A stretch of 11,558 bases of DNA from Thermoproteota archaeon (GCA_029258835.1 JAPDJY010000086.1:1-11558); one strand, 5' to 3'; positions 801-11,558 are shown, counted from the stretch's first letter. Translations and numbers: made by a program. Notes: generated by a model from the letters alone, not told the origin.

Positions 801-843
801 CATTTTGTTAAAATCCTGAGTGCTGCTGTGTCTCTGGAGTTCA

Positions 844-880
844 GAAAACAGGGTAAGACTGATGGAGGGGGGAGGGCTGA
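844..880 (+). repeat. Highly degenerate CRISPR repeat beyond the array 1 trailer
   Basis: GAAAACAGGGTAAGACTGATGGAGGGGGGAGGGCTGA starts 43 nt (about one spacer length) after the last repeat. It keeps GAAAAC, GATG and the G-run in register, and differences are mostly A>G or C>T. Confidence 0.6.
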
Positions 881-1263
881 AGGTTTCGAATAGTTTGTTG
901 TTGTTTTTTGTTGAAGGTGATGAGTGGGATCTGATGGAGGGGGTTGTTGGTTGTTTAACCCTTTTTTGTTTTTTCTTGGGGGAGGGTGGGTTTGGTGGGG
1001 GGGTGGTTGTGTTGCAGTTCGAAAAGTTTGAATTTTGTGGTTTCTGTTTTTAGGGTGGCGGGTAAGGTGTGTGGGTGGTTGTTCTTAGGGTTGATGATTC
1101 CTGGCTTTGGGTGAGGGTAGGTAACTGGATGGAAGGGGTGGTGGAGTGTGTGGGTTGGGTTTTTCTCTTGGTGGGATGGGTGTGTTTTTCTTTTTGGTTG
1201 TGAAGCTGGCTTTTAGCCTTTTCTTTTAGGTTTAGCGGGTTTAGTTTTGTTTGGGGTGGAAGG

Positions 1264-1482
1264 TTGATTATTTTTGGTGGGCGTGTGGTCGGTGTTGAGG
1301 GATGTGTCATCGTGGAGTATATTTGCCCCTTCTGTGGGAGCCGTGAAGAGGTTCCTATGGGGGACTTCTATACTGTGCACGACTGCACGGTGTGTTGCAG
1401 GATGTTTGTTGTGTGGTTTAAGCCTGTTGTTGAGGCGAGTGGAGGCTACGTTGACCTGGGGGAGCGTGGCGGCAAGGATTGA
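1264..1482 (+). CDS. Small Zn-ribbon / CPxCG-motif cysteine-rich protein (start codon uncertain)
   Basis: YICPFCGS...HDCTVCCRM resembles the CPxCG...DCxVCC pattern of Cys_rich_CPXG-type proteins. Its base composition is more balanced than the surrounding G/T-rich DNA. Confidence 0.5.
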   Translation: MIIFGGRVVGVEGCVIVEYICPFCGSREEVPMGDFYTVHDCTVCCRMFVVWFKPVVEASGGYVDLGERGGKD

Positions 1483-2656
1483 CGGAGGCTGGTGGGGGGC
1501 AGAGGCGGGTTCGCATTCTTTCTCCTTCTTTTTTCGGGGTGGAGGCGTGGGTGGGGTTTGAGGAAGGGTTTGGGAGCCTTTGAGTACACTATTTTTGTCT
1601 ATGGCTGGTTGGCTGGGTTGGGCTTCAGTTCACTGTAGGGGGCGGGTAAAACATGGTGGAGGAGGGTGGCGGCGTTGCTCTGGAGGGTTCTAACTCTTTT
1701 TGAAGCTGTTCCTGGAAGGCGGGTGAGTTCGGTGGAGGGAGGATGTTGGAATGAGGTGGATGGTGGTTTTTATTGTTTTGATTTATGTTGGAAGGTGGAT
1801 GGGGCTGGTGGGGTGGCGGCTTGGTGTTGGGGTGTTGTGCAGTGTTTTTGAGTGGCTGGTTGGGTGGCGCTTGTTGAGCGCGGCTTTGGTTGATGGTGTT
1901 TATGTGGGTTTGACGGTGCCGGGTGGTCTTACGTGGTCTTACGGTCGCGGGTTATCGGGGTGGTTAAGCCTTTTGGCGGTGGGTTTTGCTGGGTGGGTGT
2001 TTTCTTATTGGTGTTTGACGGCGGGAAGATGTTTTCTGCCTTTGCCGGGTGTTAGTTGTTCGGGGATGGTGGGTCTGCTGGATGGATGGAACCCTTGGAG
2101 GGTGTGGTTTCAGCTGGTGTGCGGTTTTTGGTTTCAGCTTTGATGGGGGGTTGTGGGTGGGTGGGTGTGTGGGTCGGGTTGTCTGGCTGCTTCATGTGGC
2201 TCATTTGCCGCTTATTGCCGCTCCTGTCCTCTTAGTGTTTGCCGGGGCGATCTCGGTGATTAGTTATGTTGCTGTTTTGCATGGCGCCCTTTTGCATGTT
2301 ACGGGTTTCACTTGTGGGTGGAATGCACGGTGTGGTGGCTGTTTTCGCGGTGTTTGGTTGCTTGGTGTGGCCCGGTGACGGGTTGCGTCTGCCCTGGCAA
2401 CCTTGCGGCCCGTCTGGGGTTGAGGGGGTTCGAGCGCGTGTTTCGCTAGGATTCTGCTTGATGGGTTTACTGGTAGCTGCTCTGGTGCTGGTTTTGCTTC
2501 CGCCGTCCTCCGCGGTGGTGTGGATGTCGCCGTAGAAGTGTCCGTCTCCCCTGGTGGGGTGCGCCAGTTTAAAGCCTAACTTTTAGGTGCCGTTGAATGC
2601 TTGGCCTTCGTTTCCACCCGGGTGGGTTCACGCCTTCCTCCATTTTTTCGCCCGGC

Positions 2657-2676
2657 GCCGCCCTCCGGAGGGTGGC
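2657..2676. other. Near-perfect 20-bp GC-rich palindrome/hairpin downstream of the CARF gene
   Basis: GCCGCCCTCC|GGAGGGTGGC has one mismatch (G-U if transcribed from +). It lies about 70 nt past the CARF stop codon. Function unknown. Confidence 0.3.
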
Positions 2677-2745
2677 AGCACCTCCTGCCGGCTGAGGGGT
2701 GTGGCTCACAGAACACGTGAACGTTTTGCTGAAAGGGGCGCTTTT

Positions 2746-8898: not shown

Positions 8899-8907
8899 GG
8901 TGGAAGC

Positions 8908-9180
8908 GTGAAGGTGATAGTCGTGTACGACATAACGGAGGATGACGCCAGAACCCGGCTGAGAGAGTACCTCAAGGATCTCGGAGGCAGGTGGCTTCAG
9001 TACAGCGTCTTCGAGCTAGACCTGAACCCTCAGCAGCTCGAGAGGCTTGAGAGGGAGGTGAGGAGGATACTGCGCAGGGCTACGGGGGACGTGAGGATAC
9101 TGAAGCCGTGCAGCCAGTGCTACCAGAAGATAAGGCACATATCGACGAGGAAAAGAGACCTATCACGGTGGGAGGCGTAG
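8908..9180 (+). CDS. cas2: CRISPR-associated endoribonuclease Cas2
   Basis: 90 aa with VIVVYDI, LQYSVF and a C-terminal CxxC. GTG start with SD GAGGTGG overlapping the cas1 stop. Confidence 0.96.
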   Translation: MKVIVVYDITEDDARTRLREYLKDLGGRWLQYSVFELDLNPQQLERLEREVRRILRRATGDVRILKPCSQCYQKIRHISTRKRDLSRWEA

Positions 9181-9484
9181 CAGGCGAAGGACGAAGACGT
9201 GAAGCCCAACCCACGTAGGCTTAACGTGAACAGACAGCCGAACAGAAACACCACCCTTAAGCCACGGAAACACCACGGCAGGCAACAAAGCGTGAAGCCG
9301 AAGGCGGACACAGCAAACACTCAAGACAGAAACCGCCGAACAACCCAGCCACCCAGTAAGGAGCCAAGCCACCAAACCAGCCTTAAGCGCTCAGAAGCCA
9401 TCAACCCCCCAGAAGAGTTACCGACCTAGGAAGCAAACCCCCAACAACACCAAAAAAATCCCTGAAAGCAGAAGCAAAAAATAG

Positions 9485-9521
9485 TAGAGTTAATCTCCCT
9501 CATCAAGTCTTGCTTGCATCC
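9485..9521 (-). repeat. Highly degenerate CRISPR repeat beyond the array 2 trailer
   Basis: TCATCAAGTCTTGCTTGCATCC aligns with the consensus TCATCGGGTTTTGTTTGTTTTC and lies 32 nt from the next degenerate repeat. Confidence 0.5.
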
Positions 9522-9553
9522 AAGACAAACCCCACACCCGCCCACAAGCCACA

Positions 9554-11558
9554 ACTACCATCCCCTTTTCATCAGGTTTATTTGTTTTCACTTTTCTTCG
9601 CTGACCCCATGGAGCTCGTTATCCAGTTGCCGTTCCCTTTTCATCGGGTTTTGTTTGTTTTCCAGCTGAAGTAGAGGACATTGTTGCTAGACCTGACATT
9701 TCGTTGCCGTTCCCTTTTCATCGGGTTTTGTTTGTTTTCAGCGTGATCATCGAGGAGTTGAGAAGGAGCAAGGCTATTTTGTTGCCGTTCCCTTTTCATC
9801 GGGTTTTGTTTGTTTTCCCCTACGTACTTACTGGACGGGGGCCAATTTGGCTTTATGTGTTGCCGTTCCCTTTTCATCGGGTTTTGTTTGTTTTCTCAGG
9901 GCTGAAGAGATAGTCAGCACCGCAATCAAGGGTAAAAGGTTGCCGTTCCCTTTTCATCGGGTTTTGTTTGTTTTCTTATGTTCGCCTTGAGCAGCGAGGA
10001 GTTTCTCGAGCAGCTGTTGCCGTTCCCTTTTCATCGGGTTTTGTTTGTTTTCAGGAGGAGCTTGCCGCGTTCGGCGGCAAACTCGAGCAGTTGCCGTTCC
10101 CTTTTCATCGGGTTTTGTTTGTTTTCTAGTTCCTCCGACTGCTTGGCGGGTTAGAGTTTACGATTCAGTTGCCGTTCCCTTTTCATCGGGTTTTGTTTGT
10201 TTTCAAGAAGGGAGACGTTTTTAGATGGGCTCCTGTGATATGCCGTTGCCGTTCCCTTTTCATCGGGTTTTGTTTGTTTTCTTATCTTCACGGCAACTTC
10301 AAAAAAACGACTGTCTTGATGTTGCCGTTCCCTTTTCATCGGGTTTTGTTTGTTTTCGAACAATGGTGGCAGAGATATCAAGGTTACGTTACAGGTAGTT
10401 GCCGTTCCCTTTTCATCGGGTTTTGTTTGTTTTCACGGGGAAATAGGGCAACGCAGAACCCCAACCCTCAAGCCATGTTGCCGTTCCCTTTTCATCGGGT
10501 TTTGTTTGTTTTCGAAGAAGGCGTTAAAGCAGGAGGTGGTGAGGAGCATTGCTTAGTTGCCGTTCCCTTTTCATCGGGTTTTGTTTGTTTTCGAGAGGGT
10601 GATGGAGGAGCTGAAGGGGAAGCCGATGGTTGTTGCCGTTCCCTTTTCATCGGGTTTTGTTTGTTTTCTTGCACCAGTAATGTCGGGGTTCTACGTTGCG
10701 GTGTGCAGGGGTTGCCGTTCCCTTTTCATCGGGTTTTGTTTGTTTTCAGAAATTAACAGAAATTCTTGAAGGAAATGAAGCAAAATTAAGTTGCCGTTCC
10801 CTTTTCATCGGGTTTTGTTTGTTTTCGATATCCCGAAGGAACTTAGAAGTCACTTTGACGTCATGTTGCCGTTCCCTTTTCATCGGGTTTTGTTTGTTTT
10901 CCTAGCTAAGGGTGATTTGGCTGTTGAGGATGGGCGGCGTTGCCGTTCCCTTTTCATCGGGTTTTGTTTGTTTTCTGGGTCTACCAACCCGCTCCAAGAA
11001 ATCCAAAACCGATGTTGCCGTTCCCTTTTCATCGGGTTTTGTTTGTTTTCACAGGAATGTTTCGCTTCTCCATGACGCCATAAGAAGTTGCCGTTCCCTT
11101 TTCATCGGGTTTTGTTTGTTTTCAGGAATGTCAGGGTGAGGGGGGACAGGGGGACAGGGTACGGATGTTGCCGTTCCCTTTTCATCGGGTTTTGTTTGTT
11201 TTCGCAAGTAGAGCCGGTAATGGTCATTGAGTGCACCAGGACGTTGCCGTTCCCTTTTCATCGGGTTTTGTTTGTTTTCTGAACCTGTGGATGGTGTTTT
11301 CAGGTTGAAGCCTGGCGTTGTTGCCGTTCCCTTTTCATCGGGTTTTGTTTGTTTTCTTGAGAAGAAAACTAGGAGGACAAAGACGGCACAATGGTTGAGT
11401 TGCCGTTCCCTTTTCATCGGGTTTTGTTTGTTTTCAAGGTCTTGATGTTGATTAAGCAAGGGTTCTCCGCCGACGGTTGCCGTTCCCTTTTCATCGGGTT
11501 TTGTTTGTTTTCTTGAGAAGAAAACTAGGAGGACAAAGACGGCACAATGGTTGAGTTG
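9554..11558 (-). CRISPR. CRISPR array 2: 1 degenerate trailer repeat, 25 identical repeats and 1 partial repeat; 26 spacers of 36-43 nt
   Basis: GTTGCCGTTCCCTTTTCATCGGGTTTTGTTTGTTTTC runs from 9626 through 11476-11512, with a partial copy at 11555-11558. The degenerate copy at 9554-9589 has 7 transitions and 1 deletion. The repeat is the exact reverse complement of the array 1 repeat. Confidence 0.98.

Follow-up and report, generated by a model that had tools for sequence, protein, structure and literature searches.

The window, an 11,558-nt stretch of DNA analysed at its full length, is an entire contig of a thermophilic Asgard (Jordarchaeales-like) MAG. This 2.72-Mb genome is 94.7% complete with an estimated contamination of 6%, and its thermophile markers include a 16S GC content of 64.6% and an encoded reverse gyrase. 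We detected two CRISPR arrays built on the same repeat, along with cas genes, decayed genes and tracts of strongly strand-biased composition, as follows:

1–800, plus strand: CRISPR array 1, 11 copies of a 37-nt repeat (GAAAAC..GGCAAC), with its trailer end at 800
801–2550, plus strand: G/T-rich tract, 76% G+T, forming the right-hand arm that leads away from array 1
844–1825, plus strand: ghost CRISPR array, with eight decayed repeats at 844–880, 915–951, 977–1013, 1111–1147, 1473–1509, 1637–1673, 1714–1750 and 1789–1825
1264–1482, plus strand: small Cys-rich (zinc-ribbon-like) ORF inside the tract, of uncertain status, with a weak Pfam hint
2746–3597, minus strand: CARF/Csx1-type gene (Cas_APE2256), convergent with the 801–2550 tract
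3598–4044, minus strand: G/T-rich intergenic DNA (keto skew of -0.36 on the plus strand)
4045–4491, minus strand: coiled-coil gene with 21-nt (7-aa) tandem repeats and paralogues on contigs C60, C39 and C24
4560–4960: local mirror switch near 4835, the plus strand being A/C-rich at 4560–4830 (-0.32) and G/T-rich at 4840–4960 (+0.49)
4805–4841, strand not assigned: leader-like or repeat-like 37-mer at the switch near 4835
6358–6574, plus strand: broken tyrosine-recombinase-like ORF, in fragments with stops (DFGGG at 6358–6372, HTLRR at 6560–6574)
6891–7691, minus strand: radical SAM gene
7700–8400: second local mirror switch near 7950 (-0.31 left, +0.30 right), between the radical SAM gene and the cas1 remnant
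8374–8898, plus strand: truncated cas1, whose weak Pfam match covers only the C-terminal part
8908–9180, plus strand: intact cas2
9181–9553, minus strand: G/T-rich tract (keto skew of -0.44 on the plus strand), forming the arm that leads away from array 2
9486–9522, minus strand: ghost repeat within that tract, from the transition-blind scan
9554–9589, minus strand: degenerate terminal repeat of array 2, with five C>T and two A>G changes plus a 1-nt deletion
9626–11,558, minus strand: CRISPR array 2, 25 copies of the same repeat as array 1, continuing past the contig end

The tract downstream of array 1 has a composition of A.11, C.13, G.40 and T.36, and its keto skew (G+T versus A+C) of +0.51 is the maximum among all 1750-nt windows of the genome. 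A scan that compared only purines and pyrimidines with the CRISPR repeat, and is therefore blind to transitions, recovered the eight ghost repeats listed above, spaced at 62–82 nt or multiples thereof. Shuffled sequences averaged 0.31 such repeats, none of 200 shuffles reached eight, and the opposite strand of the tract yielded zero. Because eight ghost repeats stand against an expectation of 0.3, the tract derives from a decayed CRISPR array of A/C-rich repeats. The remnant at 844–880, in which a sequence-only reading had seen a one-way trend, is real, and its changes are mostly A>G. Array 1 itself carries A>G changes in its final three repeats, joined by C>T in the very last. For array 2, the same reading had counted seven substitutions at 9554–9589, all A>G or C>T, and comparison with the consensus returned exactly these seven on the minus (crRNA) strand. 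Taken alone, they are weak evidence, since 28 of the 37 consensus positions are A or C, and by our own arithmetic such an outcome has a chance of about 0.03 under realistic transition bias.

Pooled evidence is far stronger. When 10 ghost or degenerate repeats from both array trailers were polarised against the repeat consensus, the spectrum was strongly one-directional, with A>G at 115/192 versus G>A at 8/79 (Fisher 6e-15) and C>T at 45/76 versus T>C at 0/10 (P = 3e-4). The excess of C>T and A>G on the crRNA strand was seen in the trailers of both window arrays, bearing out the proposal that this DNA decays directionally on one strand. A degenerate terminal repeat is a common feature of CRISPR trailer ends, and mutations in the final repeats of both arrays fit this leader-distal decay; unlike in ordinary trailers, the decay here is nearly purely one-way and can be traced through at least eight further ghost units over about 1 kb.

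The four tracts that had been named as G/T-rich in the direction of local transcription all proved so, with plus-strand keto skews of +0.51 (801–2550), -0.44 (9181–9553), -0.36 (3650–4045) and -0.32 (4560–4830), each at or past about the 99th percentile for its length. The string EGRIG, earlier read as a decayed CopG-like motif, is present at 7772–7786. At the convergent csx1 gene the skew changes sign in a "toward" junction, as a transcription model predicts.

The sequence-only reading had explained these tracts by transcription: the non-template strand of each unit and its read-through would be exposed, its C and A deaminated thermally or enzymatically, and each unit left G/T-rich on its sense strand. 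Both array trailers, with their G/T-rich crRNA strands and directional decay, agree with this, as does a thermophilic host. We followed the skew genome-wide using K4, the sense-strand keto skew at 4-fold sites, taking |K4| >= 0.3 as strong. Mean K4 was only +0.045 (P = 1e-29), and strongly skewed genes comprised 198 with a G/T-rich and 104 with an A/C-rich sense strand, a preference of about 2:1 which indicates that some tie to gene orientation remains. Highly expressed genes such as that for EF-1a (K4 0.72) are strongly G/T-rich on the sense strand, again as the transcription model expects.

The genome-wide comparison nevertheless went largely against a sense-strand rule and tied the skew to the local DNA strand. 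At synonymous sites, same-strand neighbours were positively correlated (rho +0.40 to +0.42) and opposite-strand neighbours anticorrelated (rho -0.31), convergent and divergent pairs alike. Several of the 104 genes at K4 <= -0.3 were confirmed as intact by Pfam, and A/C-rich sense strands occur in intact genes lying upstream of, and co-oriented with, points from which skew extends, including a VTT/DedA gene before 16S (K4 -0.81), HisG and an amidohydrolase before tRNA-Met. The sense strand is likewise A/C-rich upstream of 16S and tRNA-Met, as is the crRNA strand on the leader side of three further arrays (contigs C16, C48 and C49). Third-position skew even changes sign within the intact gene for RpoA' (about -0.7 before the switch, +0.6 after it) and within that for EF-2 (-0.9, then +0.8).

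Gene content lends the proposed weak uracil and hypoxanthine repair no support, as genes for UDG (2 copies), EndoV, NucS and RNase HII are all present, and a search for CDA-type deaminases with PF00383 gave zero matches in this 94.7%-complete MAG. Oligo-T is the known termination signal in archaea, and the G/T-rich strand of 801–2550 contains 14 runs of T5-6, the first at 904; if these terminate efficiently, they would tell against read-through as the source of the long arm. Heat deaminates C much faster than A, yet the two transitions are equally frequent here. The same argument has been made against deamination in human DNA (PMC2817419). Of the transcription-coupled model, then, the one-way decay on the crRNA strand and the thermophilic host stand, and the sense-strand rule at 4-fold sites and the weak repair do not; we regard it as an unlikely account of the whole.

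Skew across the genome is laid out in paired mirror-image arms that start sharply and fade over 1–7 kb, the G/T-rich strand always running 5'>3' away from the start point regardless of gene direction inside the arm. Start points are mostly heavily transcribed loci, including CRISPR arrays, 16S, 23S, tRNA genes, EF-1a, EF-2, RNA polymerase subunits, Alba and CDC48. Sharp switches were minus-to-plus in 28 cases versus 7 plus-to-minus, and just 7 of the 28 lay between divergent genes. All six CRISPR array flanks, 16S and 23S showed outward polarity, and 4 of 10 Rfam tRNA genes had a left-to-right jump above 0.3, compared with 3.6% of random sites. To the right of 16S, plus-strand values of 0.81, 0.31, 0.25, 0.27 and 0.03 form a gradient on C3 that crosses genes of either orientation, and those on C16 and C49 do the same. 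Both T/(T+C) and G/(G+A) climb to 0.8–0.97 at the 4-fold sites of the extreme genes. Beyond the arms there is a weak long-range component (r ~0.12 out to 80 kb), and inspection by eye revealed no common sequence motif at the switch points.

Outward polarity with fading over distance is also compatible with divergent transcription, in which strong archaeal promoters fire both ways and read-through together with upstream antisense transcription exposes the outward strand; a similar proposal exists for mammalian genes at their 5' ends. Most start points are highly expressed loci, the 16S switch (C3:7765) falls at a likely TATA/TSS region, the A/C-rich arm at tRNA-Met stops at a TATA-like box, and several switches fall in intergenic DNA that carries promoters, such as that ahead of CDC48 and hydrogenase genes. 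Many others, however, lie deep in ORFs (RpoA' codon ~457, a PFL-like gene ~655, EF-2 ~102), one (C6, near 25.4–25.8 kb) is at the 3' end of a convergent pair of genes or just within it, and arms of 2–7 kb would require transcription across many oligo-T runs. We consider promoter-centred exposure possible, at perhaps one chance in four.

Some of the intragenic switches coincide with highly conserved motifs (NADFDGDEMN, DxPGH), and these may mark junctions left by recombination or assembly instead of start points; EF-1a of the sister MAG has no internal step of this kind. Extended to the whole pattern, this becomes a mosaic explanation, in which recombination between related lineages or chimeric assembly joined segments at conserved motifs and the skew itself came from ordinary replication or transcription bias. 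The rpoA' profiles differ greatly among close relatives, with a step near codon 450 in three lineages, and the estimated contamination of the MAG would allow for chimeras. Random junctions, though, predict equal polarities rather than 28 versus 7, silent-site amplitudes of +/-0.7 to 0.9 demand a strong local process anyway, and the ghost repeats decayed in situ. The pattern also recurs in an independent assembly: in a Jordarchaeales MAG of another genus, EF-1a has a K4 of 0.81 and flanks with the same mirror pattern, compared with -0.48 to +0.13 in 18 other archaea. Mosaicism is thus doubtful as a general cause, on a par with sense-strand deamination. Extreme windows are common across the order and almost absent from another Asgard genome (G011), and the arm pattern is inherited and lineage-specific.

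Selection on RNA folding or processing might also favour leaders rich in A/C and trailers rich in G/U; the 16S processing helix, for instance, pairs an A/C-rich 5' strand with a truly complementary G/U-rich 3' strand. The skew, however, extends over dead repeats, spacers and pseudogenes and over kilobases of silent sites in genes of either orientation, making selection very improbable.

We therefore favour, at about even confidence for the two parts taken together, a reading in which the tracts are the near-equilibrium outcome of persistent one-strand A>G and C>T mutation pressure and belong to outward arms from fixed start points, with the sense strand of each gene not the determinant. In the window, this pressure would have rewritten a dead piece of CRISPR array together with further DNA under no selection. 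DNA synthesis or strand displacement would start repeatedly at these points and move outward, triggered perhaps by R-loop priming or, at transcription hot spots, by restart or repair following breaks. The strand that runs outward may be left single-stranded, so that its C and A are deaminated, or it may be the newly made strand carrying G:T mispairs. Transcription would thus act by creating start points and not by exposing every gene's non-template strand. In the window, arrays 1 and 2 would be such start points, and their trailer DNA would fall in the outward arms.

Several known systems share parts of this pattern. Transcription-associated mutational asymmetry, reportedly described by Green in 2003 and Polak and Arndt in 2008 for mammals and by Beletskii and Bhagwat in 1996 for E. 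coli, likewise gives a G+T excess on the non-template strand at highly expressed loci and fits the array trailers of the window; it tracks each gene's sense strand, unlike the anticorrelated neighbours, many A/C-rich senses and within-gene flips seen here. A heavy-strand composition gradient is said to have been reported for vertebrate mitochondrial DNA by Reyes in 1998 and by Faith and Pollock in 2003, work that PMC2817419 also cites. There, as here, C>T and A>G on one strand make it G/T-rich, the effect weakens with distance from the start, and the pressure overrides silent codon positions in essential genes; the mitochondrial case has one start per small genome and a known strand-displacement mode, unlike the dozens of two-armed starts on a 2.7-Mb chromosome. 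A replication origin shares the sharp minus-to-plus switch at a fixed point, but a classical origin predicts skew sustained over a whole replichore, and the arms here extend only a few kilobases.

Strand-coordinated mutation clusters (kataegis), which Roberts in 2012 and Sakofsky in 2014 reportedly tied to resected breaks or break-induced replication, resemble the arms in their kilobase runs of strand-coordinated transitions and their strand switch at a fixed point, and differ in that the pattern here is evolutionary and cumulative rather than one of single events. We rejected the resection type of kataegis: from the known 5'>3' direction of resection, deamination of 3' overhangs predicts a strand that is G/T-rich toward the break, and the observed polarity is away from the centre. 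Since resected overhangs give the opposite polarity, only synthesis-side models fit.

The closest published analogue is a bidirectional asymmetry between strands reported for human CpG islands and origins, with the same polarity (Polak and Arndt 2009, PMC2817419). In that system, a fixed point separates A>G/T>C ratios under 1 on its upstream side from ratios over 1 on its downstream side, and the asymmetry is sharp at the centre, smooth at the midpoints, independent of local genes and centred on promoter-associated sites; its authors favoured replication and polymerase error spectra over deamination (PMC2817419). In humans, the rate ratio differs by about 7–9%, the effect stays constant across hundreds of kb, and C>T is symmetric (PMC2817419). 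Here, by comparison, G+T reaches 75–95%, the asymmetry of C>T matches that of A>G, and the arms die away over 1–7 kb. In the literature searched, we found no description of a genome-wide outward one-strand A>G/C>T pattern.

To our knowledge, only organelle genomes otherwise show local strand asymmetry of comparable size. Here, unselected DNA reaches 75–90% G+T, and the silent sites of RpoA' and EF-2 are about 80–95% one-sided. The chromosome concerned belongs to a relative of the ancestor of eukaryotes, and the asymmetry has transcription hot spots at its centre, with the polarity described for human CpG islands and origins. As a consequence, codon usage and the amino-acid make-up of proteins are distorted, long false ORFs arise, and decayed genes and arrays are hidden, although these can be recovered with transition-blind searches. 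The arms may also give a readable footprint of DNA-synthesis or transcription starts in organisms that are not yet cultivable. We tentatively suggest that in Jordarchaeales, and apparently other Asgard archaea, busy genes may be fixed starts of outward, strand-asymmetric DNA synthesis, R-loop-primed or break-restarted, which would couple the initiation of replication or repair to promoters and busy genes much as at eukaryotic origins and would be strong enough to rewrite silent sites in essential genes and erase dead DNA into G/T tracts.

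The window, an entire 11.6-kb contig (C59) from a MAG of 2.72 Mb in 91 contigs, comes from an organism that is a thermophile, given a 16S rRNA GC content of 64.6% and a reverse gyrase encoded in the genome. Its EF-1a shares 89% identity with that of a 'Candidatus Jordarchaeales' MAG, which places it in the Asgard archaea, and DNA nearly identical to the window occurs in vent and sediment metagenome runs. Two CRISPR arrays with a common 37-nt repeat lie in the window, their trailer ends pointing inward:

1-800, plus strand: CRISPR array 1
Between the arrays: genes for Csx1/CARF, a coiled-coil repeat protein, a ferredoxin-like protein, a radical SAM protein, a truncated cas1 and an intact cas2
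9626-11558, minus strand: CRISPR array 2

Within array 2, 11320-11402 and 11476-11558 are identical repeat-plus-spacer units (83 nt, 100%) lying two units apart; the cause is either spacer duplication or an assembly repeat where the contig ends. The radical SAM region (6949-7720) is low in GC (36-44%), and in four metagenomes contigs 85-95% alike cover it 10-50 times as deeply as the remainder of the window; this gene is either common to other abundant organisms or recently transferred.

The DNA downstream of array 1 has decayed directionally, by A>G and C>T changes. Recomputing keto skew (the balance of G+T versus A+C) for each tract named in the sequence-only reading upheld all of its compositional statements: 801-2550 (A.11, C.13, G.40, T.36; skew +0.51) is the most skewed stretch of 1750 nt in the genome, and plus-strand skew was -0.44 at 9181-9553, -0.36 at 3650-4045 and -0.32 at 4560-4830. 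The degenerate repeat at 9554-9589 carries exactly 7 substitutions, all A>G or C>T on the crRNA strand as that reading had stated (5 C>T and 2 A>G), plus one deletion; by itself it is weak evidence for directional decay, because the repeat is 76% A+C and most transitions necessarily begin at A or C. The decisive evidence came from a scan for ghost repeats, in which DNA was recoded as purine/pyrimidine, hiding transitions in both directions, and searched for the CRISPR repeat. Eight ghost repeats were detected in 801-1825, spaced by 62-82 nt or multiples thereof (shuffle mean 0.31; 8 reached in 0 of 200 shuffles), with none on the opposite strand in the same scan, and array 2 is followed by a ninth at 9486-9522. 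It follows that the G/T-rich tract was once an extension of the A/C-rich array and has since decayed. Polarised against the repeat consensus, G has replaced A at 115 of 192 sites versus A replacing G at 8 of 79 (Fisher 6e-15), and T has replaced C at 45 of 76 sites versus C replacing T at 0 of 10, bearing out the proposed direction of change. Elsewhere, the scan gave no ghost repeats other than the terminal degenerate repeat in the C49 trailer, and leader-side matches were unconvincing. The integrase and CopG-like pseudogenes cited as further examples were located in the window, the integrase-like one at 6.3-6.6 kb; another pseudogene of the window is the cas1 N-terminus at 8.0-8.4 kb. Metagenome contigs from four runs, sparse in cover at 1545-2316, gave unpolarised counts in which transitions dominate (~4-5:1) and are roughly symmetric window-wide. 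A small Cys-rich ORF (CPFCG..CTVCC) at 1264-1482, within the ghost array, is more mildly skewed than its surroundings and may be a real gene outlasting the decay.

The sequence-only reading attributed this decay to transcription, on the grounds that skew flips locally with transcription direction. This fits most of the window but fails widely elsewhere in the genome; even locally, the rule that DNA downstream of a gene is G/T-rich on that gene's own strand breaks down immediately past the ferredoxin-like gene, on whose strand 4840-4960 is A/C-rich. A self-trained codon model yielded 2514 approximate gene calls (81% coding), and for each we computed the sense-strand keto skew at 4-fold degenerate sites (K4). 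K4 varied far beyond sampling (sd 0.20 versus 0.095) around a mean of just +0.045; at |K4| of at least 0.3, 198 genes had a G/T-rich sense strand versus 104 with the opposite (~2:1). Skew correlated positively between same-strand neighbours (rho +0.40 to +0.42) and negatively between opposite-strand neighbours (rho -0.31, identical for convergent and divergent pairs), so genome-wide the skew is a property of a stretch of DNA strand and not of gene orientation. Genes with A/C-rich sense strands are genuine, as shown by strong Pfam matches to VTT/DedA, HisG, amidohydrolase, I-T NTPase, Roadblock, EF-2 and RpoA'. The sign can even change within an intact gene: third-position skew is about -0.7 at codons 1-450 of RpoA' and +0.6 at codons 451-884, passes from -0.9 to +0.8 near codon 100 of EF-2, and also flips in two other long genes.

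These sign changes belong to a recurrent layout. On the plus strand, the left side is A/C-rich and the right side G/T-rich, such that on either side the strand rich in G/T is the one leading 5'>3' outward from the centre. At the 16S rRNA gene the sense strand is nearly pure A/C for ~700 nt upstream and G/T-rich downstream, and plus-strand skew in successive genes to the right fades as 0.81, 0.31, 0.25, 0.27 and 0.03, even though these genes are divided between the strands (two minus, three plus). The same layout was found at 23S, all six CRISPR array flanks (including leader sides), tRNA-Met and EF-1a. Sharp switches scored at silent and intergenic sites had this outward polarity in 28 cases versus 7 reversed, and only 7 of the 28 lay between divergent genes. 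RpoA', RpoA'', EF-1a, EF-2, Alba, CDC48, an Arf-like GTPase and hydrogenase subunits lie at or adjoin switches, tying the arms to busy loci. An Rfam scan of 18 stretches around switches returned only 16S and one tRNA; among scorable Rfam-supported tRNA genes, which we preferred to the few and partly dubious ARAGORN calls, a skew jump >0.3 occurred at 4 of 10, versus 3.6% of random sites. In metaprofiles, skew stayed positive for ~4 kb downstream of high-K4 genes and changed sign 2-3.5 kb upstream, and it changed sign 1.5-3.5 kb downstream of strongly negative-K4 genes; a weak long-range component (r ~0.12) extended to 80 kb. By eye, no shared motif was seen at the 28 switch points. The intragenic switches coincide with very conserved motifs, NADFDGDEMN in RpoA' and DxPGH in EF-1a and EF-2. 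Natural recombination or chimeric assembly at such motifs could have sharpened or created some of them, but the 4:1 polarity bias and recurrence in independent assemblies argue against this as the main cause.

Within the window, both arrays are start points, with 801-2550 and 9181-9553 as their outward arms, and opposing arms meet where the sign changes, near 2600-2750 and 8600-9180. Further mirror switches, both smaller, occur near 4835 and near 7950. At 4780-4850, purine-rich GAAAGAAAAGAAAACCTGAGGAGAAGAAGGGGGGG matches the repeat at 22 of 37 positions, resembles by eye the leader of the C48 array and coincides exactly with the local switch; it could be what is left of a leader, or a repeat standing alone. 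On contig C35, an (AAAAC)n microsatellite of at least 60 nt (~3600-3655) sits exactly on a mirror switch point.

Several of these loci have further features. The 16S gene (C3:4900-8700) is unlinked to 23S, which is on C14; in its processing helix the 5' strand is A/C-rich and the 3' strand paired with it is G/U-rich, and its G/T-rich trailer is broken near C3:5560-5750 by a non-skewed element of ~200 nt. A second CRISPR type begins at C16:51013 (repeat CTTGCAAAAAGAGTCCCCAGACATGGGGATTGAAAG), with a nearly pure A/C leader and adjoining cas1 and cas2 that rank with the genome's most skewed genes. At C2:74657-75310 the 3' half of tRNA-Met seems, by eye, to be repeated inverted ~550 nt downstream and may delimit an integrated element. 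rpoA' (C3:66334-68988) and rpoA'' (C27:30800-31990) are on separate contigs, rpoA' being flanked by hisG and a PRPP-synthase-like gene and not in the usual rpoB-rpoA'-rpoA'' operon.

The skew is lineage-specific. EF-1a K4 was 0.72 here and 0.81 in the Jordarchaeales MAG, with mirror flanks alike, and ranged from -0.48 to +0.13 in 18 other archaea, among them Archaeoglobus, Methanocaldococcus and other Asgard lineages. Windows of 200 nt with |skew| of at least 0.3 made up 2.9% of this genome, 1.4% and 5.1% of two relatives in the order, 1.7% of another Asgard genome and 0.1% of a 1.42-Mb single-contig Asgard genome. Profiles of rpoA' differ strongly among relatives, being mild in the sister genus (two genomes) and +0.4 to +0.8 over codons 50-450 in two genomes of the other family, so the arms are relocated or altered over the evolutionary time that separates genera. 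These comparisons argue against an assembly, sequencing or damage artefact, which we rejected since the skew is coordinated by strand within regions and independent assemblies show it too. Heat alone is likewise a doubtful cause: EF-1a is unskewed in the hyperthermophiles Archaeoglobus and Methanocaldococcus, and G011, an Asgard comparison genome, is nearly free of extreme windows.

The outward polarity shows that the enriched strand is the one that an outward-moving polymerase would displace or synthesise. Outward DNA synthesis, outward transcription and a mixture of the two are all compatible with it; deamination of 3' overhangs from break resection is disfavoured because it predicts the opposite polarity. 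In the transcriptional case, the outward strand would be exposed to one side of the centre by read-through and to the opposite side by divergent antisense transcripts. We moderately favour outward DNA synthesis, because switches occur deep within ORFs and, in one case, at or just inside the 3' end of a convergent gene pair, because kilobase-long arms cross many oligo-T runs (14 in 801-2550), and because A>G is no weaker than C>T, unlike spontaneous deamination, an argument likewise made for human DNA by Polak and Arndt (PMC2817419). The ordinary repair inventory points the same way: UDG (2 copies), EndoV, NucS and RNase HII are all encoded, which led us to reject repair-gene loss and speaks against the weak uracil/hypoxanthine repair first proposed, and, as regards the enzymatic alternative, no CDA-fold deaminase was found in this genome. 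Local initiation, priming from R-loops, or restart or repair following breaks might each begin such synthesis; the outward strand would then either stay single-stranded and undergo deamination or be synthesised afresh with G:T mispairs. The data establish that the change is directional, that it is regional and fixed to a strand, that it is polarised outward, that it goes with busy loci and that it is specific to the lineage, whereas all the molecular steps proposed here are inferred. Literature on Jordarchaeia, Asgard strand asymmetry, archaeal keto skew and hyperthermophile deamination asymmetry yielded no published description of the phenomenon; the nearest analogue, bidirectional asymmetry around human CpG islands (PMC2817419), is much weaker and long-range compared with the arms here. 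At C2:139585-141141, a nucleotidyltransferase-like and HEPN-like gene pair (named by eye from translations; keto skew 0.3-0.54) encodes proteins rich in V, G, W, R and F, showing that the skew pressure reshapes amino-acid composition.
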